The notes under the pieces: model-generated | What the model saw: the letters and a program-made list of their open reading frames with translations, nothing else | Database searches by the model: none | What the model was told of the DNA's origin: nothing | Position numbers and translations under genes: made by a program | Shown here: positions 1 through 9,030 of the stretch, one piece after another | How positions within the stretch are numbered: the stretch's first letter is position 1 | Layout: each line of letters opens with the position of its first letter | Origin: a virus | Lineage: Duplodnaviria > Heunggongvirae > Uroviricota > Caudoviricetes | IMG/VR virus record: IMGVR_UViG_2706794662_000005 | Length of the DNA: 25,237 nucleotides | Strand: one strand, 5' to 3'

Positions 1-250
1 TCAGATCGCACAATCCGGGCTAAGTTCCCTCAAAGTGATCTACTATTCCGCGCAGCTATTTAGAGGATTATGCGAAACGCACAAATCAAAGCATTCTCGC
101 TGTAAGAAGGCAGGCTGATAGATCGGTAATTCCCGTTACTCAAGAAGGAAGAAACACAAAACGCAAAGTAAATCTCTTCGCAATTTTCCTGAAAACCATC
201 AGAAACGCAGAGAAATACGTGCAGATGACAAAATAACGAGGTGTCATTTT

Positions 251-589
251 ATGCTGAAGCAACGCCGTAATTTTTGTACCGGAACAGAACGCCACGCTAA
301 CCGTTTCACTACCAGTGCATCACGCAGCAACATCCGCTACAGCCTGAGTGATACACACGCAACGCCGGATGGCTACCCAGTAAAACAAATCGGCGAGCAC
401 GCCTGGCTGATTGAGAAAGCTGGAATCGTGATCCACAAATGCCCACGCAATCCGTTTACCGGAAACCGCATTTTTGCACTGAGCTGTGGCGACAATCAGT
501 TCGGGCAGGATTTCACATTATACGAAGCACTTCGCACGGTTGATCGTCTGCTTCGCGGGCAAAGTTTTATTAAACAGGCTGATTTATAA
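251..589 (+). CDS. hypothetical early-region protein (112 aa)
   Basis: ORF-track ORF, co-oriented with and tightly packed against the downstream early genes; GAGG-like RBS about 9 nt upstream. No motif recognised. Confidence 0.45.
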   Translation: MLKQRRNFCTGTERHANRFTTSASRSNIRYSLSDTHATPDGYPVKQIGEHAWLIEKAGIVIHKCPRNPFTGNRIFALSCGDNQFGQDFTLYEALRTVDRLLRGQSFIKQADL

Positions 590-599
590 CAGGTGCTTT

Positions 600-887
600 A
601 TGACCAAAGACAATGCACAAGGTGTATTTATCCGTTTTATTGATTTTCGCGGTGAACTGTTATTACGTGCATCCGCTATTGACGGAGTGACTCCGGCGGG
701 TAAAAACGGAGCCGACGAAGCCACTTACGTTTATCTGAACGGCACGCGACTGCTTGTGGAACTTCCGTACCAGACCGTACGAGAAATCATCAGCGAAGAT
801 GAAAAGGCACGCCAGGTTAATGGCGATGAACCCTATATCGAAATTATTTGTATGGATTCAGAAGCTGAAATACAGAAAGCAGATTAA
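600..887 (+). CDS. hypothetical early-region protein (95 aa)
   Basis: ATG at 600 lies 10 nt after the stop of the previous ORF, same frame as ORF-track 486-887. Acidic C-terminus. No motif recognised. Confidence 0.45.
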   Translation: MTKDNAQGVFIRFIDFRGELLLRASAIDGVTPAGKNGADEATYVYLNGTRLLVELPYQTVREIISEDEKARQVNGDEPYIEIICMDSEAEIQKAD

Positions 888-898
888 AGGGCGTTGTG

Positions 899-1141
899 AT
901 GGGCAAAGAATATAAAACTCTCATTAACAAAGCACTTGAGCGTTTTTATTTTCGCTTAAGTGCATCAGGCGCTCATGCTGAACGTGCGGCCCGTGACTCA
1001 TTGACCAGAGCAATCCGAAGTCTGTATGACGTGGCTTTTTACGCTGATGATCTGGATGCACTTAACGAACTTTCCGAGCTGATCTGTGCCGCAGAATGCG
1101 GGGAACATATTGAACCGTATAAGCTGGGAAATATCGCATGA
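899..1141 (+). CDS. hypothetical early-region protein (80 aa)
   Basis: ATG at 899 preceded by AAGGG; the ORF track starts at GTG 896. Its stop overlaps the start of the next small ORF (ATGA). Confidence 0.45.
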   Translation: MGKEYKTLINKALERFYFRLSASGAHAERAARDSLTRAIRSLYDVAFYADDLDALNELSELICAAECGEHIEPYKLGNIA

Positions 1142-1251
1142 GTATATTTATTTCATGGCTTGTTCTGATTATTTCGGTGGTCTGCGCCATTGGGATTATG
1201 CGAATTATTAATTCAGTAAAAAAGATTGAACGCTTTTTCACTGAAGAATAA
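1138..1251 (+). CDS. small hydrophobic peptide (37 aa), putative single-pass membrane protein
   Basis: ATG at 1138 overlaps the upstream stop (ATGA). Translation MSIFISWLVLIISVVCAIGIMRIINSVKKIERFFTEE has one hydrophobic helix and a charged tail. Too short for the ORF track. Confidence 0.35.
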   Translation: MSIFISWLVLIISVVCAIGIMRIINSVKKIERFFTEE

Positions 1252-1337
1252 CCGCGCAAATAAGACCCCAGGTTAAATAAGAAAATGTGAAAACAATCCG
1301 CATTCGCGGAGGTATTCGCACACGCCAAGGAGGCGTA

Positions 1338-1541
1338 ATGGCAATTAAGCATTTTCCTGTCGTTCGTTTCACCTCCAGAGGACGTGAATACGAAGTTGAC
1401 GAACGCCTGATTACCACAATCGACAAACACCGTTCAGAAAAGGATGCACATCATATCTATCTCACTGACGGCACTTACTTCTGCGCCACCAACGTGGTGC
1501 AGGTGAATCTTATCAGACAGGTACAGGAGTCACGCAGATGA
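1338..1541 (+). CDS. hypothetical protein (67 aa)
   Basis: ATG at 1338 preceded by a strong AAGGAGG RBS at 1327-1333; the ORF track gives a longer frame from 1287. Confidence 0.45.
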   Translation: MAIKHFPVVRFTSRGREYEVDERLITTIDKHRSEKDAHHIYLTDGTYFCATNVVQVNLIRQVQESRR

Positions 1542-1783
1542 CCATTCTGGACTACATCGCTGCCAATCCGGGTTGTAGCAGTGGAGAAATCGCCGCAGCA
1601 CTGAATACACCAACCACAACCATTAATGCGGAGCTACGCCGTCTCTGGCGCAGCGGTTTAGTCACAAGAAAAGAGCGCAAAACAGGCGGTCGCTTTTCTT
1701 ATCAGGTAAACCTGATGCCGTTTGGGTGTAGCAACCCACTAACCCAGATGTTCAACCAGCTACTGAGGGAAATCAGAGCATGA
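1538..1783 (+). CDS. putative winged-helix DNA-binding protein (81 aa)
   Basis: ATG overlaps the upstream stop (ATGA) with AGGAG upstream. The sequence (GEIAAALNTPTTTINAELRRLWRSGLVTRKERKTGGRFSY) is consistent with a helix-turn-helix plus wing; the fold call is inference. Confidence 0.45.
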   Translation: MTILDYIAANPGCSSGEIAAALNTPTTTINAELRRLWRSGLVTRKERKTGGRFSYQVNLMPFGCSNPLTQMFNQLLREIRA

Positions 1784-1924
1784 GCACCTCCAACTGCCGG
1801 AAACCACGTCGGGCTTCAGCAGCTCATCCGGCAGCAAAACAAACTCCATTAATTCCTGTTCCGGGCCTTTCCTGCACCTTGCGGCGGGAGGCCTTCGCAC
1901 ATCTGTAACAAGAGGATTGCCGCA

Positions 1925-2290
1925 ATGATTCTCGCCAACGACTTTCTTGAATACCTGCTCAACACAGAGCGTGATCTTGCCGCTCGCGTGCGTGATCGTT
2001 ATGACATGTACCTGAAATCCCTGCCTGTACCGCAGCTCGCTGACGGAAAGATTGTTATTGATGGTCGCTACATGATTGACAGCCACGAGGGAAATTACAG
2101 GCTTTACCGCATTGAAGGTGGCACCCCGTCCGTTATTGGCATTTACCAGCGCCCATCCTCTGCAATCGTCGATGTGATTGCCGACAGCATCCGCATCACA
2201 CATCGCCATGCCGACACAGAAGACACCGTGCTGGAAATTCAGCGGCTGGCTACAGTCTGCCGCGACACCCTGAATGGCATGACGAAGTAA
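1925..2290 (+). CDS. hypothetical protein immediately upstream of the rep gene (121 aa)
   Basis: ORF-track ORF ending 6 nt before the rep start codon; same strand as the operon. Confidence 0.5.
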   Translation: MILANDFLEYLLNTERDLAARVRDRYDMYLKSLPVPQLADGKIVIDGRYMIDSHEGNYRLYRIEGGTPSVIGIYQRPSSAIVDVIADSIRITHRHADTEDTVLEIQRLATVCRDTLNGMTK

Positions 2291-2296
2291 ATCACT

Positions 2297-5119
2297 ATGA
2301 CGGCAGAGTACATCAGGGACTGGCAACAACCGCGCCACGCAGTGGGGCGTGAAGGAACGGGGATCCCCGCTCCTGAATCCGCGCTTTCCTCCTGGCTGGA
2401 TGCCCACCGGGCAGAGAACGAGCGCCGCCAGGAAATGGCTGATGCGGCGTTCTCCGCCACGCCACTGGGCAACCTGATTAATAAAAGCCTGGACGCACAG
2501 GAAAAACAGGACAAAACCATCACACTGGCAGGAGACGCCAGAAAACAGGCACGCGGCGCGGTGGATGAAGCCATGGCCTCGCTGCGCCTGCTGCCGTCCT
2601 ATCTGCGCGATCCGCTTATTCGCCACCTCTCCTTCCTGCGCAAAAAACAGGAAGCCGATCGCCGGAAAGGCAAAAAGAGCTGGCAGGCGGAACGCTATGC
2701 ACGCGGAACCCTGCGCAAAATATTCGAACGTCTGGATCGCACTGACGGACACTGGCTGACACCGGGTTATCGCTCCCTTGCCGGACGTGAACGCCTGGAC
2801 GATTTGCTTTACCTGCCGCAACTCAACAAACACCAGATACAGACGCTGGCCACCATGACGGCGGCGATGTTCAGCAGCACCTTCGAAAAACTCTGCGATG
2901 GTTTTGGCGCGACTGATGGCGAGCTGACCATGGATGTAACGCTGAAGGCGTATCAGATGCTGGCCCGCATGGCGTTACACTTACACGCCATGCCTCCGCA
3001 TTATGACGCACTGACAACAGACAAAGACCGGAGGCACGAACCGGACACAGAACTGCTGCCGGGCGCAATCCTTCGCCTGACCTGTGCGGAATGGTGGAAA
3101 CGCAAACTGTGGCTGTTACGTTGCGAGTGGAGAGAAGAACAACTTCGCGCCGCCTGTCTGGTTTCCAGAAAAACATCGCCCTATCTGAGCCAGGACGCGT
3201 TAAGCGAGTTTCGCGCACAGCGCGAGAAAACACGCGATTTCCTGAAAAGTTTCATGCTGGAAAATGAAGACGGGTTCACGATTGATCTCGAGACGGTGTA
3301 TTACGCGGGAGTAAGTAACCCGGTTCACCGTAAGGCAGAAATGATGGCCACCATGAAGGGGCTGGAACTTCTGGCCGAAGCCCGTGGCGACAAAGCGGTG
3401 TTTCTGACTGTCACCTGCCCGTCAAAATACCACGCCACAACGGAGAACGGTCATCCGAATCCCAAATGGAACGGGGCCACAATGCGCGACTCCAGCGATT
3501 ACCTGGTTAACACGTTTTTTGCGACGGTCCGCAAAAAACTGAACCGCGACGGCCTGCGCTGGTATGGCATCCGCACGGCGGAGCCTCACCATGACGGCAC
3601 CGTGCACTGGCATATGATGGTCTTTGCTCATCCGGAAGAAATCGACACCATTGTGTCCCACACCCGCGATATTGCCATTCAGGAAGATCGTCACGAGCTG
3701 GGCGATGACATAACTCCGCGCTTTAAGGCGGAGTATGTAGACGGCTCAAAAGGCACGCCAACCAGCTACATCGCCACCTACATCGGGAAAAACCTGGACA
3801 GCCGCGCCGTGGATGGCATCGACCCGAAAACGGGCAAGCCACGCGTTGACCACGAAACCGGAAAATCAATGGCCGAGAGCGTGGAACGCGCCATCGGCTG
3901 GGCGCGCCTTCACCGGGTCCGCCAGTTCCAGTTCTTTGGCATCCCCTCCCGCCAGGTATGGCGTGAACTGCGCCGCCTTGCCAGCCAGATGGCACGCAAC
4001 CCGGAAGGCCCGCAACGGCTGAAGGATGACGCAATGGATGCGGTTCTTGCCGCCGCTGATGCCGGATGTTTTGCCACCTACATAGAGAAACAGGGCGGCG
4101 TACTTGTTCCACGCAAAGACTACCTGATTCGCACCGCCTACGACCTCGCCGATGAGCTGAACGATTACGGCGAACAGAGCGTACAGATTTACGGGATCTG
4201 GTCACCACTCATCGGGGAATCCTCCCGTGTGTGCACGCATCCGGATAACTGGAAGCTGGTAAGACGCAAACCGGAAGCGGAAGACAGCGCCCGCGAAAAT
4301 GGTTTTGACCTTCAGGGCGGCCCTGCCGCCCCTTGGACTCGTGGCAATAACTGTCCCCGTGTACAGGAAACGGACAACAACGGGACAGAACAGCCGGAAG
4401 AACGGCCAGCACCGTGGCCGCAGCTCCCTGACGGCGTTGATGTGGATGAATGGATGCGCTCACTGAAACGGCACGAACGCCGGGCGCTGATGCGTTCGCT
4501 TCGTGACAAACAGGCAAAAAACAGCAGTGATGAAATGCAGAGCTGGACACAGAGCCGCAAACAGCAGCGGCCTTTGCCTGATAACCACGAATTACTCGCT
4601 AAAGAATGGCGGGAGTCTGCTGAATCTCTCGGCCTGCATATCGGTGAACAACAGATGCAGCACCTGTTACGGGGCGGCAGTCTGTACGTTGACGGCAGCA
4701 TCATTGCACCGCAGGGATTTGAAATTGTACGCAAACCGGATACCCGCCCGGACAGCCGAATCACGCAGCTCTGGCAGCGCCTGAGCCGTAATCATGGCGT
4801 AAGCAGCACGGAGATCCGCCATAACCCGGTCGCCAGCTATCTGACACAGCTGGGGGCATCAGACCCTGAAGCCGCCGCACGCCTGGCATCCACACTTCAG
4901 CAGGACCAGAACACCATGAAAACACCCGTTACCGTGCTTTCTGACATGCTGCGCGCCATCCGCGACGCAGAGCACGCACAGAGAATCAGTGAAACCACTG
5001 AACGCGCCCGCCGCAAAGCAGACCTGCTGCGGGGTGGCCTGACCAGTGGAAACAAAAAACAGACAGAAACGGGACTCACGAATCCCGTAAATGAGCAAAA
5101 AACGCGCAGCGATATATGA
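2297..5119 (+). CDS. A: rolling-circle replication initiation endonuclease, P2 gpA-like (940 aa)
   Basis: HUH motif TVHWHMMVFAHPEE (about 3596-3640) and a paired-tyrosine motif YIATYIGKN (about 3763-3790), both typical of P2 A-family nickases. Longest ORF in the window. The C-terminal third is hydrophilic and low-complexity. Confidence 0.9.
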   Translation: MTAEYIRDWQQPRHAVGREGTGIPAPESALSSWLDAHRAENERRQEMADAAFSATPLGNLINKSLDAQEKQDKTITLAGDARKQARGAVDEAMASLRLLPSYLRDPLIRHLSFLRKKQEADRRKGKKSWQAERYARGTLRKIFERLDRTDGHWLTPGYRSLAGRERLDDLLYLPQLNKHQIQTLATMTAAMFSSTFEKLCDGFGATDGELTMDVTLKAYQMLARMALHLHAMPPHYDALTTDKDRRHEPDTELLPGAILRLTCAEWWKRKLWLLRCEWREEQLRAACLVSRKTSPYLSQDALSEFRAQREKTRDFLKSFMLENEDGFTIDLETVYYAGVSNPVHRKAEMMATMKGLELLAEARGDKAVFLTVTCPSKYHATTENGHPNPKWNGATMRDSSDYLVNTFFATVRKKLNRDGLRWYGIRTAEPHHDGTVHWHMMVFAHPEEIDTIVSHTRDIAIQEDRHELGDDITPRFKAEYVDGSKGTPTSYIATYIGKNLDSRAVDGIDPKTGKPRVDHETGKSMAESVERAIGWARLHRVRQFQFFGIPSRQVWRELRRLASQMARNPEGPQRLKDDAMDAVLAAADAGCFATYIEKQGGVLVPRKDYLIRTAYDLADELNDYGEQSVQIYGIWSPLIGESSRVCTHPDNWKLVRRKPEAEDSARENGFDLQGGPAAPWTRGNNCPRVQETDNNGTEQPEERPAPWPQLPDGVDVDEWMRSLKRHERRALMRSLRDKQAKNSSDEMQSWTQSRKQQRPLPDNHELLAKEWRESAESLGLHIGEQQMQHLLRGGSLYVDGSIIAPQGFEIVRKPDTRPDSRITQLWQRLSRNHGVSSTEIRHNPVASYLTQLGASDPEAAARLASTLQQDQNTMKTPVTVLSDMLRAIRDAEHAQRISETTERARRKADLLRGGLTSGNKKQTETGLTNPVNEQKTRSDI

Positions 5120-5167
5120 AGCGCGCACAAAACAGGCAAAAACGGGATTTCAGAATCCCGTAAACGA
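5051..5167. repeat. two copies of a ~42-bp direct repeat, each holding a 6-bp inverted repeat (ACGGGA-N8-TCCCGT); candidate parC centromere/operator or replication origin
   Basis: Palindrome cores at 5069-5088 (acgggactcacgaatcccgt) and 5142-5161 (acgggatttcagaatcccgt), with shared flanks aaacag.ca.aaacggga...gaatcccgtaaa. Copy 1 overlaps the last codons of rep; copy 2 lies 35-55 bp upstream of the parM start. Confidence 0.4.
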
Positions 5168-5195
5168 TTAATTAATCAACATAAGGAAAAGCGAC

Positions 5196-6155
5196 ATGAA
5201 AATTTGTATCGACGACGGCTCCACCAACATCAAGCTGGCATGGACTGAGAACGGCGAACGCCGCAACGCCATCAGCCCGAACAGCTTCAAGTCGGAATGG
5301 TCTGCGCCGTTCGGTGGCATGCAGCCCGCGAACTACATGCTTGATGGCGTGCGCTATGGTTTTGATCCGGTCAGCGATCGCTTTGTCCAGACAACCGACA
5401 CGCAATACCAGTACAGCGATGTAAATGTCATTGCCATTCATCACGCGCTGGTCAAATCAGGCATCACGCCACAGGAGGTGGATGTGGTTGTCACCCTGCC
5501 ACTGAGCGAGTATTTCGACACAAACGCACAGCCGGACATGGCCAACATCAACCGCAAAAAAGCGAACGTTATGCGCCCGGTGGAGTACCAGAACGGCGAA
5601 GCATTCACTATCCGTAACGTGCGGGTTATGCCTGAATCCATTCCGGCTGGCTTTAAGGCACTGGCTGACATGAGTCCGTTTGAATCCCTGCTGATTGTGG
5701 ATTTGGGCGGAACCACGCTGGATGTGGCAAAGGTTCAGGGGCAACTGGCAGGTATCAGCCAGGTGTTTTGCGATCCACACGTAGGCGTTTCTCTGATGGC
5801 CGATGCCGTACTGTCGGTGATGGCCACTAACGGTATGCGCACCAGTCACCACATCGCCAATACCATTATCGAACATCGCCATGATGAAGCCTGGCTGCGC
5901 CAGCACATCCACAATGACGCGCATTACGCCAGCCTGATGGCGGTTATTCGTGAAAAGGAAGAAACACTGAAACAACGCGTGATCCGCGCGCTGGCGGGTT
6001 TTTCGGGTTACGGGCGGGTGATGGTTGTCGGTGGAGGGGCGGAGATTGTGGCACCCGCTATCCGCGAAGCCTGCGGAGTTAATGCGACTTTCATCGCGGA
6101 CGGGGTGCCACAGTTTGCTCTGGTTAATGGGCTGTACGCAATGGACAAGGAGTAA
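5196..6155 (+). CDS. parM: actin-like segregation ATPase, ParM/StbA family (319 aa)
   Basis: N-terminus MKICIDDGSTNIKLAW and downstream blocks (ISPNSFK.EW, YQYSDVNVIAIHHAL, LIVDLGGTTLDV) match my recollection of plasmid R1 ParM. RBS AAGGAAA upstream. Confidence 0.85.
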   Translation: MKICIDDGSTNIKLAWTENGERRNAISPNSFKSEWSAPFGGMQPANYMLDGVRYGFDPVSDRFVQTTDTQYQYSDVNVIAIHHALVKSGITPQEVDVVVTLPLSEYFDTNAQPDMANINRKKANVMRPVEYQNGEAFTIRNVRVMPESIPAGFKALADMSPFESLLIVDLGGTTLDVAKVQGQLAGISQVFCDPHVGVSLMADAVLSVMATNGMRTSHHIANTIIEHRHDEAWLRQHIHNDAHYASLMAVIREKEETLKQRVIRALAGFSGYGRVMVVGGGAEIVAPAIREACGVNATFIADGVPQFALVNGLYAMDKE

Positions 6156-6159
6156 ACCA

Positions 6160-6471
6160 ATGACGACACCAACCAGACGGATAAGTTTCTATCTGAAGCC
6201 TGCGGCCGTCAAGAACGAAAGCGAAGCATGCGCCTGGCTGGGCAGCCTTACACCAGAAGCCCGCAAAAGCGGCCAACGCGTGGCTTTTCTGGCCGGGCTG
6301 GCACTTCTGAAAATGAATCCAGCAGAGGCTTACCGACTGGCTGCATGGGCTGACGATGAGGCGTTATCGGTGACACAAACCAGGACAGAACGCCCCGTGC
6401 CACAGCCAGTACCAACCGCACAGATAACCAGTCAGATAGCAGGGAATATCCGGGCATTATTTCCTGAATGA
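6160..6471 (+). CDS. parR: ParR/StbB-like centromere-binding adaptor (103 aa)
   Basis: Starts 5 nt after the parM stop with AAGGAG RBS. Small protein; N-terminal RRISFYLKPAAV and C-terminal IRALFPE resemble R1 ParR as I recall it. The ORF track lists the frame from 6025; 6160 is the in-frame ATG with an RBS. Confidence 0.65.
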   Translation: MTTPTRRISFYLKPAAVKNESEACAWLGSLTPEARKSGQRVAFLAGLALLKMNPAEAYRLAAWADDEALSVTQTRTERPVPQPVPTAQITSQIAGNIRALFPE

Positions 6472-6531
6472 CGAATTTGACGGCTTTTAATTTTATCGGG
6501 GTGCACTGTCGCCCCGCACGAGGAAAACACG

Positions 6532-7056
6532 ATGAAAAAATACGAATACATGCTAATGAAAGAAGCACTGCGGGCTGGTCTGGCTCCCTGTCCTGTATCC
6601 GTAGAAGCTGTTGTTGGGAACACGATTTTCCGAACGCTGCGAAATCGCGTATCCGTGAAGATGGTTCACCAACCACCCAAATCTACCAGCATGATCTATC
6701 TGCCGCTGCCCGAGGCTATCAAACTTATGCGTTCGCTGAAATTTGCGATTTGGATGCAGACACAAATCAACAAAGCGGTGCAAAACACCTTCGTTAAGAG
6801 ACTAATACCGGAGCTTGCTGCCAGATGTGCAAAATGTACCAGACCCGCACTTCAATTTGATCTGTCATTGATTCAACAAGCTACGGAGGCAGAACTGTAC
6901 CGCCTGTCACCTATCCGTGATGCTCACACGGAAGCATCAGAAATGTTCCGGCTCATGTTTCAATTTAATTTTGCCGTTCGACGCACACGCGTTCAGGTCA
7001 ATCGCATGATGCAGGAGCAGGAAGAGTTAACACAGTACAAAGGGGGCAGCCAGTGA
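6532..7056 (+). CDS. hypothetical protein (174 aa), first gene of an accessory cassette
   Basis: GAGGA RBS, ATG at 6532. No recognisable motif. Noticeably more AT-rich than the structural genes by eye (not computed). Its stop overlaps the next start (ATGA). Confidence 0.6.
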   Translation: MKKYEYMLMKEALRAGLAPCPVSVEAVVGNTIFRTLRNRVSVKMVHQPPKSTSMIYLPLPEAIKLMRSLKFAIWMQTQINKAVQNTFVKRLIPELAARCAKCTRPALQFDLSLIQQATEAELYRLSPIRDAHTEASEMFRLMFQFNFAVRRTRVQVNRMMQEQEELTQYKGGSQ

Positions 7057-7292
7057 GTAATTCAGCACGACTACAGCTTGGTTTTTCACCGCTATCAAAA
7101 ACCATCGTATTGGCAAAAATGCGTGACTTAGGAGACGGAACAAAACGCCGCGTAGGAAATGATCGCGGTCGCGATGTAACCAACGAGGCCGCTCAACTCG
7201 TTTGGCATCTAGTCATGGCAGAAGGCGGTGAAATTAATTGGGAGCTGGATGATGGTTCTCGTATGATTTTGAGGGCCGAGAAGAGTAAATAG
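7053..7292 (+). CDS. hypothetical protein (79 aa), second gene of the accessory cassette
   Basis: Translationally coupled to the upstream gene (ATGA overlap at 7053-7056). No motif recognised. Confidence 0.5.
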   Translation: MSNSARLQLGFSPLSKTIVLAKMRDLGDGTKRRVGNDRGRDVTNEAAQLVWHLVMAEGGEINWELDDGSRMILRAEKSK

Positions 7293-7306
7293 CTCAAGGG
7301 GGATTA

Positions 7307-7492
7307 ATGCTAAATGATGATGAAGAAGAGCTGCTTATGCAGGAATGGTCGCTCGGTGATTATGATAATGGTGAAAATGGGTGCCCGCATTGTGGCCGTT
7401 ATCGTTTATGTATCTGCCAGAATGGAAAACACAGATGTGAAAAGTGCAATTGGTCTCCGGAACTTAATGACTACGTGCCGATCGAGTGGTAG
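7307..7492 (+). CDS. small Cys-rich protein with putative zinc ribbon (61 aa), third gene of the accessory cassette
   Basis: AAGGGGG RBS upstream. Cysteine pattern CPHCG...CICQNGKHRCEKC and an acidic N-terminus. AT-rich. Confidence 0.5.
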   Translation: MLNDDEEELLMQEWSLGDYDNGENGCPHCGRYRLCICQNGKHRCEKCNWSPELNDYVPIEW

Positions 7493-7499
7493 AGGTAAG

Positions 7500-7980
7500 T
7501 CACACTAGGTGTTTTTTAGTTGATTTTATAAATGCACAATAGTGCACAAATTTGCACAATTTTTTTGAACGACTTTTTGCCCTTCCGGCCCGCGTGGCGG
7601 CTGGATCCGTCAAGGATCCGTGCATGCACAAAAAAACGCGTTTTTTCTGCGCGCAGGTGACGGGGGAACAGCCCGCGTTTCAGGGGGTAAATAGCATTCC
7701 CTGAACGATGTCGCAGAGATACAACAGAATGGCTGTATTTCTCACGCTGAGCGTGAAAAAGACGTGAGGGCTTTTGATTTGATGGGGTGAAAGGTAAGGC
7801 CGTCAAAATCGCACTGAGACGGCGAGAATATGCAGTCAACGAGGTGGGATTGCGTAAGAGTCTGACTGTCGATGATGGCAATCAGCAGGAAAGCGTCGTG
7901 AAATTATCTGACTGATACAGGAGCTGGAGAGTCGGGGCATAAATTTTTTATGCCCCGGCGAAGCAGCAGACAAGCGAAGC
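7500..7980. other. non-coding cos / packaging region (putative)
   Basis: About 490 bp without a convincing ORF between the cassette and the portal gene, where P2-family phages carry cos. Contains TGCACAA three times at exact 10-bp phasing (7533, 7543, 7553), GGATCCGT twice (7603-7610, 7614-7621), an A6-CGCG-T6 palindrome (7631-7646), a GC-rich 19-mer ggtgacgggggaacagccc (7656-7674) that loosely resembles the P2/186 cohesive end as I remember it, and a perfect 10-bp-stem hairpin at 7933-7957. Confidence 0.45.
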
Positions 7981-7983
7981 GCG

Positions 7984-9030
7984 TCAGGATGTGGGCTGGG
8001 TGTCTAACAGTGCGTAAGGGTTAAAGCGGATCACCTCTTCGCCAAGCCAGTCATTGATGTGCTTCATGGCCTCCATGACGGGCATCAGCTCGTTAATTGC
8101 GTAAACCCGCGCGGCCTTCTCCACATCACCAAACGCACTTTTTTCGCCCGGCATCGCCCCCATCAGTTGCGGCGGAACGCGGTGCGCAGCCAGCACATCA
8201 TCACGGGATGCCGCCTTAACATTCATGAACTCATCCTTTGCGGTGATCTGCTGGAACGGCAAAATTTGCACCCCCTCTTTGCCCCCGTTGGGCGCATGAA
8301 TGAGCACGTTTTTAAACGCACCACCACCACGTGCCCCCTGTAGCGTTTCTTTCAGGGAGTCCATGCTTTCGCGGTTTACCTGCGCTGCACCGATGTAGAT
8401 GATGCACCCGGCGTGGGATCCGTTGTCGTAGTACAGTTTTCTGAACATGTCCGCCGAATGAGAAAGGCTGGCCGAGAGTAATGCGCCAAGATATTCCGGC
8501 ATGCCGTAGATTTCCTGGTTAATATCCGGATTCATCAGGTGGCACACTTTGCCAGGACGAAACTGAAACGCATCCTTGCCATCCTGCACATACCACCATG
8601 ATTCAAGATCGCTTCCGCGTCGCATGTATTTCGCCAGGGCGTGCCGTAATTTAAGCGGTTCGCCGAGCATATTGCTCCGAAGCTCAAGGAATGCGTTACC
8701 GAACACAAACCAGTCCAGCGCCAGCGCCGAGAAATCCTGCCGGGAAAGCAGCGGGTGCGGAATATAGCAGCCGAGCAATACATTGCGCTTAAAGTAAAGC
8801 GCAGACTGATGCCAGGACGTTTGCCGGGCAGCTCTTGCCAGACCGTACCAGTCCACCGGGGTTTCATACCACCGCCCGTTATCAGCACAGTACATATTGT
8901 CCAGCAGGTCATGCCCGGTCAGGCGGTAAGGACCATCAAATGTGAATGCACTGAGCGACGATTCTTTCCTGAGCGCATCAGCGAGATCAATGCGTGAACT
9001 CATGCGCACTTTTTTATTTTTTCTGCTCAT
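7984..9030 (-). CDS. Q: portal protein, P2 gpQ-like (348 aa)
   Basis: Size, position next to the terminase and translational coupling (TGATG overlap with gpP at 9028-9032) match the P2 Q-P arrangement. Confidence 0.88.
   Translation of the reverse strand: MSRKNKKVRMSSRIDLADALRKESSLSAFTFDGPYRLTGHDLLDNMYCADNGRWYETPVDWYGLARAARQTSWHQSALYFKRNVLLGCYIPHPLLSRQDFSALALDWFVFGNAFLELRSNMLGEPLKLRHALAKYMRRGSDLESWWYVQDGKDAFQFRPGKVCHLMNPDINQEIYGMPEYLGALLSASLSHSADMFRKLYYDNGSHAGCIIYIGAAQVNRESMDSLKETLQGARGGGAFKNVLIHAPNGGKEGVQILPFQQITAKDEFMNVKAASRDDVLAAHRVPPQLMGAMPGEKSAFGDVEKAARVYAINELMPVMEAMKHINDWLGEEVIRFNPYALLDTQPTS

Follow-up and report, generated by a model that had tools for sequence, protein, structure and literature searches.

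Two palindromic repeats upstream of parMR in a P88-like prophage of Escherichia coli: a probable parC-type centromere

ParMRC is the textbook machine of plasmid segregation, and a close relative of the R1 proteins is encoded here by a P2-like prophage that is integrated in the chromosome. The locus raises the question of what is done by a pair of palindromic repeats that lies directly upstream of the phage parM gene and reaches into the end of the replication gene, rep; a first-pass annotation had offered two roles for the pair, a parC centromere and a replication origin. The window analyzed here (the whole stretch of 25,237 nucleotides) is a P88-like (Xuanwuvirus, P2-like) prophage of Escherichia coli, and a literature search on parMR of P88, Xuanwuvirus, or CP-933T found no functional study of the locus. 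The reading to which a probability of about 0.7 is assigned is that two 42-nt modules with CGGG-N10-CCCG dyads are the parC-type centromere of a phage-borne type II (ParMRC-like) cassette.

The rep gene (2297-5119, plus strand) encodes a P2 gpA-type replication endonuclease of 940 aa (Pfam Phage_GPA, 6.6e-131), which is 30% identical to P2 A, and it is followed on the same strand by parM (5196-6155) and, after a gap of 4 nt, by parR (6160-6471). The parM product is an actin-like segregation ATPase of 319 aa (Pfam StbA_N, 2.7e-82; ParM_N (ParM C-terminal, PF21523), 1.3e-68) that is 46% identical to R1-type plasmid ParM and matches the R1 ParM structure 1mwk at E = 8.5e-93. The parR product is a ribbon-helix-helix adaptor of 103 aa (Pfam Plasmid_stab_B, 5e-23) with a predicted DNA-reading strand, TRRISFYL, and a C-terminal tail, N-x3-LFPE, which aligns with the C-terminus of R1 ParR. 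As a single sequence ParR gave no direct match in the PDB, and the family profile alone reached the pB171 ParR/StbB structure 2jd3 (5.3e-17). Judged by these matches, both proteins are members of the R1/pB171 type II family. Immediately before parM, a conserved element, ATTAATCAA (5171-5179), and the parM Shine-Dalgarno sequence, AAGGAA (5184-5189), were located on the plus strand, and TTAATCAA is common to the E. coli, Plesiomonas, and Hafnia loci.

The repeats were delimited by a repeat search, which returned two 42-nt direct repeats, 81% identical and 73 nt apart from start to start, neither assigned to a strand. Module 1 (5053-5094), the reference copy of direct-repeat family D1, lies in the 3' tail of rep, and module 2 (5126-5167), the second copy, is intergenic. 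Each module carries one 20-bp dyad of the form ACGGGA-N8-TCCCGT, so that there are four half-sites in all. Dyad 1 (5069-5088) reads ACGGGA-CTCACGAA-TCCCGT and has its CGGG-N10-CCCG core at -126 from the parM ATG; dyad 2 (5142-5161) is a palindrome with 8-bp arms, ACGGGATT-TCAG-AATCCCGT, with its core at -53. The modules are separated by a spacer of 31 bp (5095-5125), within which are found a GC-rich inverted repeat, CGCGC...GCGCG (5103-5125), and the rep stop codon (5117-5119), which thus falls between the two repeats. When one mismatch was allowed, ACGGGA-N8-TCCCGT had exactly 2 matches in the window, where 0.01 were expected, and none of 100 shuffled windows had two or more. The repeat pair is therefore real and non-random. 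Its description in the first-pass annotation, as two direct repeats of about 42 bp that carry this motif about 73 bp apart, was confirmed at the same places, as was the position of the second dyad, which was given as 35-55 bp upstream of parM and was found 35-54 bp upstream of the ATG (5196). The first repeat does lie in the coding end of rep, as had been said; it was also said to encode the final residues, and that part did not hold, since it covers codons ~919-933 of 940 and is near-terminal.

A comparison of repeat conservation across related phages, which had been proposed as a check, was performed using the relaxed dyad YGGG-N10-CCCR. A pair of such dyads was found at -126/-53 from the parM ATG in the E. 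coli phage, at -132/-60 in a Plesiomonas phage, and at -129/-56 in a Hafnia phage, with spacings of 73, 72, and 73 bp, respectively, so that the position of the pair is kept in three phage lineages. ParM is only 62-63% identical among these phages and the DNA around the dyads cannot be aligned; each locus of ~9 kb contains 2-3 such dyads in total versus 0.4-0.5 expected. When viral, genome, and metagenome contigs were searched with ParM and ParR for further lineages of the dyad type, only P88-like loci were returned beyond those of the Plesiomonas and Hafnia phages.

The gene that accompanies the repeats was identified from loci in which rep and parMR are separated. In the Hafnia phage an ORF of 167 aa lies between rep and parM, and dyad 1 is inside that ORF and not in rep; in Enterobacter two genes lie between rep and parM. 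The reverse arrangement is provided by a prophage of E. coli EC5931, whose rep is 88% identical and is followed by AAA-ATPase and S8-peptidase cargo, and no dyads were found beside this rep. Homology to EC5931 stops ~20 bp before repeat 1, with the break in rep at about 5030-5035, and module 1 lies to the right of this break. The repeats are thus linked to parMR and not to rep. By the same alignment, the last ~28 codons of rep (from about 5035) are assigned to the parMR cassette. Over repeat 1 the reading frame of this rep tail is unconserved among relatives, and because natural frameshifts and length variants occur in it, it is the DNA rather than the protein that is conserved there.

These observations bear directly on the origin role. 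The repeats could be part of the phage replication origin, or accessory Rep-binding sites, in view of their closeness to the 3' end of rep and of the location of P2-family origins inside gene A (P2 record annotation); P2 is of the same phage family, its Rep is of the same protein family, and its ori is likewise an element near the 3' part of rep. However, the best match to the 30-mer of P2 ori around the annotated nick site (NC_001895 position 29892) was found elsewhere, at 4325-4354 on the plus strand, where 25 of 30 positions are identical even though the proteins share only 30% identity. This probable nick region is preceded by a GGGCGGC/GCCGCCC inverted repeat and was present in 6/6 rep genes, across which CAATAACTGT is invariant. 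It lies 794 bp before the rep stop here and 332-794 bp before the stops in the six genes, and its distance to the repeats varies among them. The replication origin is probably at about 4335, ~750 bases upstream of the repeats and outside parC, which corrects a tempting misannotation. Given also that the repeats travel with parMR, are absent beside the 88%-identical rep, and in Hafnia and Enterobacter have other genes between them and rep, the origin reading was rejected as very improbable.

Variation within the P88-like population was tabulated from 135 haplotypes. Most positions of the dyad arms are conserved and the spacers vary; in dyad 1 the spacer is polymorphic and the left arm shows no variation, and in dyad 2 polymorphism occurs at two spacer positions (5151 and 5153) and two arm positions (5142 and 5159). 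In one relative, a deletion of 73 bp has collapsed the pair into a single hybrid copy. Such a collapse, together with the location of the repeats at a module boundary, would be in keeping with a duplication that has no function, or a scar left by recombination, where the parMR cargo cassette joins its surroundings, but a scar would not be expected to keep its position, spacing, and GGG/CCC cores across three genera with fully diverged flanks, nor to conserve most arm positions within E. coli while its spacers vary, and we regard this origin of the pair as highly unlikely.

The form of the dyads also allows a reading at the level of RNA, in which they are tandem intrinsic terminators or hairpins for minus-strand transcription that keep antisense transcription coming from the late operon or the cargo region from running on into rep. 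Read on that strand, each forms a stem of 8 pairs with a T-rich tail behind it (ACGGGATTCTGAAATCCCGT-TTTTGCC...), the T-tract could come from the A-rich left flank common to both 42-nt repeats, and in the P88 lineage they are the top two terminator-like matches on that strand in positions 1-8000 of the window. On the plus strand the hairpins have no T-tract. Against this role, no minus-strand gene lies upstream of the dyads, all annotated genes from rep to 7492 being on the plus strand, and a strong hairpin lies directly 3' of the portal gene, at about 7934-7960. No Rfam family matched the repeat region, and in an RNA fold of the region the two palindromes merely paired with each other. In the Plesiomonas and Hafnia phages the stems are only 4 bp, with loops of 10 nt and no T-tract, and because the GGG/CCC cores and their spacing stay while the stems shrink, it is the dyad sequence and not the pairing strength that is conserved. 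A terminator function is accordingly rated as quite unlikely.

The first-pass annotation had also drawn on R1 parC, in which iterons overlap the parMR promoter, and had placed a parM promoter at the repeats; neither feature was recovered. Consensus scans for sigma70-like promoters, from which a weak or activated promoter could escape, found none at the repeats at 9/12 or at 8/12 in the window. At 8/12 four other phage loci likewise had no such site, and the Plesiomonas and Hafnia loci had weak 8/12 sites only; plasmid parC loci carried a core promoter in 4/4 cases, scoring 8-10/12. The best candidate by eye for a parM promoter over dyad 2 was only TTCAGA-N16-ATTAAT (8/12), in which an A at position 2 fails the -10 rule; it was reported by neither promoter scan, and no comparable fit was seen at the Plesiomonas dyad. 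Unbiased autocorrelation at lags of 10-11 in segment 5050-5172 showed no periodicity (z < 2), which leaves a hidden R1-like array of 11-bp iterons unsupported; the same measure gave z = 5.3 for an R1-type parC and z = 4.0 for a Cronobacter plasmid, and the repeat search detected 11-bp spacing solely in the R1-type locus. To the eye, AAAC-type units at 5057, 5067, 5100, 5130, and 5140 look phased, and a motif defined post hoc, A[AT]AC[AG][GC][GA], is nowhere in the window clustered more densely than here, where 84 bp contain 5 copies.

With so few sites and no iteron periodicity, the dyads might instead be operators that play no part as a centromere. They would then serve either some DNA-binding protein that is not ParR, or ParR itself, if its only task where rep meets parM were to regulate transcription or to stand as a roadblock to it. 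Dyad-symmetric elements of 18-20 bp, here only two, are typical of dimeric repressors, and candidate regulators are encoded upstream: a winged-helix protein gene at 1538-1783 in the window, and Cox and C, annotated further upstream in phage P88. Counted against an operator are that the dyads accompany parMR and disappear where it is missing, and that no promoter was found there for it to regulate; moreover, in type II systems one set of sites does both the operator and the centromere jobs (PMC2241845), and the repeat type follows the ParR beta-strand from lineage to lineage. Taken together, these points make a pure operator unlikely.

The tracking of repeat type was seen in four classes of strand with four types of repeat. 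ParR proteins with the beta-strand TRR[IV]SFYL are found with CGGG dyads; those with NRK[IC]SFY, in Serratia and Enterobacter phages and an E. coli plasmid, with ATTTTTCT-containing repeats; those with RRKI[LT]FY with xTTCTC iterons; and those with RRTIAFKL (R1 type) with AAACCC iterons. This covariation involves few independent lineages, three for the dyad type, and is suggestive, not statistical. In the P88-like population the same dyads adjoin ParR alleles whose overall identity is just ~52%, and no covariation was found between ParR alleles and dyad haplotypes, the dyad polymorphisms not tracking the alleles. The missing covariation within the group is explicable because the ParR beta-strand is invariant in this population.

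The parC role of the repeats is supported by their position relative to parM, kept in three lineages, by their absence where parMR is replaced, and by the match between repeat type and ParR beta-strand. The parC of known type II systems is made of repeated ParR sites and immediately precedes parM (PMC2241845, PMC5016525). The repeats described here are multiple and directly upstream of parM-parR, with ParM and a ribbon-helix-helix ParR encoded in cis; the repeated sites are fewer and differently arranged than in the characterized type II centromeres.

Among the closest known systems is R1 parC, whose 2 x 5 direct 11-bp iterons flank a core of 39 bp in which the par promoter lies (PMC2241845). 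R1 parC also lies directly upstream of parM-parR, the phage proteins are homologous to those of R1 (ParM 46% identical, ParR of the same Pfam family), in both cases two repeat-containing blocks flank a short core, and a GGG/CCC core is found in the repeat unit of each (R1 iteron AAACCC, phage half-site A(A/T)TCCCG). In contrast to the 11-bp array of R1 (z = 5.3), the phage has two 20-bp dyads 73 bp apart (z < 2); its core is 31 bp and has no consensus promoter, and its site overlaps the 3' end of rep on an integrating phage, not a plasmid. The candidate centromere thus differs in architecture from R1 parC in that it has two dyads, lacks an iteron array, and contains no recognizable promoter. 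In pSK41, as here, a few longer repeat units replace many short iterons and are recognized by a ribbon-helix-helix protein (PMC5016525), such recognition being predicted for the phage. The pSK41 repeats are contiguous and in tandem, whereas the phage sites are 53 bp apart, and according to the literature its ParM and ParR are no more than distant relatives of the R1 family. P2 ori remains a different element: the P2-type nick motif is at 4325-4354 and not at the repeats, which segregate with parMR.

For a segregation-type cassette on an integrating phage, the best functional precedent is AlpAC/alpS of the CGP3 prophage of Corynebacterium glutamicum, an actin-like protein with an adaptor that binds repeats upstream of its own operon; these genes are switched on soon after induction, and efficient replication of the phage DNA requires them (PMC4446434). 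The AlpAC proteins are unrelated in sequence to those described here, the host is of another phylum, and alpS comprises 24 short TTAAnnG repeats; AlpAC rests on experiments, whereas the E. coli prophage cassette is known here from sequence.

If the repeats are parC, ParR dimers would use the N-terminal beta-strand TRRISFYL to bind the dyads, whose separation by seven helical turns puts both on one face of the DNA. The C-terminal N-x3-LFPE tails of ParR would then capture the ends of ParM filaments, and polymerization of ParM would move the DNA molecule that bears the dyads. Because no promoter was recognized in the repeat site, parMR is probably co-transcribed with rep, and it would form the far end of the phage early (rep) operon. 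On this timing, the cassette would act on excised, replicating phage genomes and not on the integrated prophage. Binding, filament capture, and timing are all inferred. Several points weigh against a parC assignment: the architecture departs from every characterized type II centromere checked, with only two strong sites and no 10-11-bp periodicity; no embedded promoter was recognized, and autoregulation, the other side of the parC paradigm, is thus not apparent; the covariation across groups involves few lineages and has no counterpart within the P88-like group; both dyads of the P88 lineage resemble terminators on the minus strand; and the locus is almost always chromosomal, where a centromere has no obvious role.

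Of 5426 complete E. coli genomes, 1374 carry the parMR locus, O157:H7 and ST131 strains among them, and it is chromosomal at 1543 of the 1545 places where it occurs. One circular 'plasmid' record of 34.5 kb is a whole phage genome, which hints at a carrier state.

We suggest tentatively, as a possibility with the odds against it, that an R1-type actin machine, with a promoter-less, dyad-type centromere, has become wired to the early lytic operon of a P2-like phage that integrates, and that it lies silent in the chromosome of about one in four complete E. coli genomes; once the phage is excised, the machine may move or separate replicating phage genomes, as in the comparison with AlpAC of CGP3, or sustain a transient plasmid-like carrier state. 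If ParR binds the dyads, the locus would offer a compact and easily mutated centromere with which to find the smallest number of ParR sites able to cap a ParM filament, it would be a natural case of partition genes under phage early control, and the use of a partition system to an integrating phage that replicates by rolling circle would become directly testable.

The prophage was identified as P88-like (genus Xuanwuvirus, Peduoviridae, P2-like); its 4900-5300 interval matched 14 phage records at 96-99.5% identity, and the P88 annotation shows the same gene order. The plus-strand gene at 2297-5119 encodes a 940-aa replication endonuclease of the P2 gpA type (Rep; Pfam Phage_GPA, 6.6e-131), which is 30% identical to P2 A. 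It is followed on the same strand by parM, an ORF starting at 5196 (StbA_N, 2.7e-82; ParM C-terminal domain, 1.3e-68) whose product matched R1 ParM structures at E = 8.5e-93 and shares 46% identity with the ParM of an R1-type plasmid, and by parR at 6160-6471 (Plasmid_stab_B, 5e-23). A profile built from ParR relatives matched the crystal structure of pB171 ParR/StbB (2jd3, 5.3e-17), and the N-x3-LFPE tail at the ParR C-terminus, which we take to be the ParM-binding tail (PMC5016525), can be aligned to the end of R1 ParR. By these Pfam, structure, and tail matches, the window encodes the proteins of a bona fide type II partition system. Among P88-like prophages, ParR is highly polymorphic, with dozens of alleles and two allele classes that share only ~52% identity, and only the N-terminal beta-strand TRRISFYLKP and the C-terminal LFPE tail are fixed. 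The parR locus has a mosaic structure with its breakpoint near 6356, and the neighbouring ParM is 98-100% identical.

A repeat search identified a pair of 42-nt direct repeats at 5053-5094 and 5126-5167 (81% identity, 73 bp spacing), each enclosing a dyad of the form ACGGGA-N8-TCCCGT, located at 5069-5088 (dyad 1, within repeat 1) and 5142-5161 (dyad 2, within repeat 2). With at most one mismatch allowed, these were the only two sites in 25,237 bases (0.01 expected), and two or more matches were obtained in 0/100 shuffles. Repeat 1 is contained in the 3' tail of the 940-codon rep ORF, the stop codon of which falls between the repeats, and dyad 2 lies 35-54 bp upstream of parM. The first-pass annotation had described these paired repeats with their 6-bp inverted repeats, the first within the end of rep and the second just upstream of parM, and was confirmed. 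The repeat region gave zero family matches in Rfam. Across 135 P88-like haplotypes, the left arm of dyad 1 is invariant and arm positions are mostly conserved; polymorphisms fall in the spacers (5075, 5080, 5151, and 5153) and, within the arms of dyad 2, at the outer A of 5142 and at C5159, and the dyad haplotypes do not track the ParR alleles. Among fetched relatives of the 5000-5170 interval (L006-L248), dyad-to-dyad spacing ranges from 72 to 74 bp, and in one relative an exact 73-bp deletion has merged the repeats as a single hybrid copy.

The possibility that the repeats are a replication origin was not supported. The ori nick site is annotated in the P2 record at position 29892, inside gene A, and the surrounding P2 DNA (GCCGCGCC-TCGGAGTCCTGTCAATAACTGT) aligns to 4325-4354 (GCCGCCCCTTGGACTCGTGGCAATAACTGT) with 25/30 identical bases, within a gene whose product shares only 30% identity with P2 A. 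A GGGCGGC/GCCGCCC inverted repeat lies just upstream of this motif in the window. Five diverged relatives, including those of Plesiomonas, Hafnia, Serratia, and Enterobacter, keep the motif in rep, with CAATAACTGT invariant, and among the rep genes examined it lies 332 to 794 bp from the stop codon. The conservation of this P2 nick-site homologue across rep genes points to 4325-4354 as the probable origin, with a likely nick around 4335, some 750 bp upstream of the repeats rather than at them.

For comparison, diverged ParM homologues were fetched with their genomic contexts. In P2-like phages of Plesiomonas, Hafnia, Serratia, and Enterobacter, whose ParM proteins are 63%, 62%, 58%, and 54% identical to that of the window, respectively, parM-parR lies between rep and the portal gene. 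Using the loose dyad pattern YGGG-N10-CCCR, with positions counted from the parM ATG, a pair was located at -126/-53 in the window (spacing 73 bp), -132/-60 in Plesiomonas (72 bp), and -129/-56 in Hafnia (73 bp); the pattern occurs only 2-3 times in total per 9-kb locus, and the DNA flanking the pairs is otherwise unalignable among the three. The conservation in related parMR phages that the first-pass annotation had proposed to check was found in Plesiomonas and Hafnia, at a like distance from parM. In Hafnia, a 167-aa ORF lies between rep and parM, with dyad 1 in the end of that ORF; two genes occupy this position in Enterobacter. The rep of the E. coli EC5931 prophage, 88% identical to that of the window over 927 aa, has genes for an AAA ATPase and an S8 peptidase behind it in place of parMR, and the dyads are absent from this locus. 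Homology between EC5931 and the window ends at ~5030-5035, some 20 bp short of repeat 1; the last ~28 codons of the window rep therefore belong to the parMR cassette. Since this rep tail shows frameshifts and lengths of 33 to 69 residues past a fixed anchor among relatives L006-L248, it is the DNA repeats that are conserved and not the peptide. Linkage to parMR and conservation of the dyads argue against two less likely explanations, namely that the repeats are a functionless junction duplication or that the dyads are bound by a regulator other than ParR. The position following rep is a hotspot for cargo, holding the AAA ATPase and S8 peptidase, possibly a defence pair, on the EC5931 chromosome (L249, 3620-7120, the counterpart of the window from about 5035 on); genes found downstream of parR in relatives encode HicAB (Serratia, L092), a KAP NTPase (Enterobacter, L094), or a DUF3800 protein (L093).

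On the minus strand, each dyad forms a hairpin with a T-rich tract behind it, and the two are the top terminator-like matches in the first 8 kb, so that they may also act as minus-strand terminators, a minor reading compatible with a parC role. Against this as their main function, the plus strand carries all genes from rep to about 7492, a strong hairpin is present at about 7934-7960 directly after the leftward portal gene, and the Plesiomonas and Hafnia stems are only 4 bp and lack the T-tract, with GGG/CCC and the spacing retained. The 7934-7960 hairpin is long and perfect (CGGGGCATAAA-TTT-TTTATGCCCCG), lies at the convergent junction of plus-strand cargo genes and the portal gene, and is likely a bidirectional terminator.

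Repeat type was also compared with the predicted DNA-reading beta-strand of ParR. Homologous loci on Pantoea, Cronobacter, and E. coli plasmids and on an R1-type IncF plasmid have short direct iterons in two blocks upstream of parM, flanking a core with a sigma70-like promoter, whereas parM in the Serratia and Enterobacter phages is preceded by a large inverted repeat with arms GGGAAC-N-ATAGAAAAAT. The strand TRR[IV]SFYL was found with CGGG dyads (three lineages), NRK[IC]SFY with ATTTTTCT-containing units (two phage lineages and one plasmid), RRKI[LT]FY with xTTCTC iterons, and RRTIAFKL with the AAACCC iterons of the R1 type. Repeat type may follow the ParR strand, as expected of a ParR operator or centromere, a covariation that is only suggestive, as the independent lineages are few. 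The linkage to parMR, the conservation of the dyads, and this covariation make the proposed parC the best-supported reading, with a probability of about 0.7 that the repeats are the centromere of the phage ParMR system, both binding and function being predicted from sequence.

R1 parC is 159 bp long and consists of two sets of five 11-bp direct iterons with a 39 bp promoter-containing gap, about one ParR dimer being bound per iteron (PMC2241845). Unlike R1 parC, the phage site has no 10-11-bp iteron periodicity (z < 2; an R1-type locus scored 5.3 and a Cronobacter plasmid 4.0) and no sigma70-like promoter detectable in or around the repeats by the standard rule or by a relaxed 8/12 rule, which found a core promoter in 4/4 plasmid loci. 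These consensus scans do not support the earlier description of the paired repeats as straddling a parM promoter. A hidden phased array of AAAC-type units was rejected as a post hoc pattern that failed the periodicity test. The E. coli, Plesiomonas, and Hafnia loci share ATTAATCAA (5171-5179), located immediately before the ribosome-binding site of parM in a leader that has otherwise diverged; it is at best a weak -10 candidate. A scan for plus-strand terminators between rep and parM was likewise negative. With neither promoter nor terminator detected at the junction, the simplest reading is that parMR is transcribed with rep as the distal part of the early operon; judging from the scans, it would be expressed after derepression and silent in the lysogen.

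The rep-parMR junction (4900-6480) was found in 1374/5426 complete E. coli genomes, including O157:H7 and ST131 strains, in up to 3 copies per genome, and was chromosomal at 1543/1545 places. A 34,461-bp PLSDB 'plasmid' (L250, NZ_CP148288.1, deposited as pZ1323PEC0009-2) comprises a whole P88-like genome in circular form, encoding integrase, C-type repressor, cox, rep, parMR, and structural genes; it may represent a plasmid-like carrier state or a replicating form produced by excision. A contig labelled Vagococcus sp. WN89Y, a Gram-positive genus (L007, NZ_JBQPOM010000071.1), carries this enterobacterial prophage locus, with ParM 98% identical; contamination or a wrongly labelled assembly is the probable cause. 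The literature searched yielded no paper on this cassette or on its centromere. AlpAC, from the likewise integrated Corynebacterium prophage CGP3, is the closest functional parallel: its adaptor binds repeats that precede the operon, and after induction the system promotes replication of the phage DNA (PMC4446434). The element is a new architecture for a known type of system; its importance is raised somewhat by its prevalence in E. coli and by the question of what role a partition machine has for a phage that integrates.
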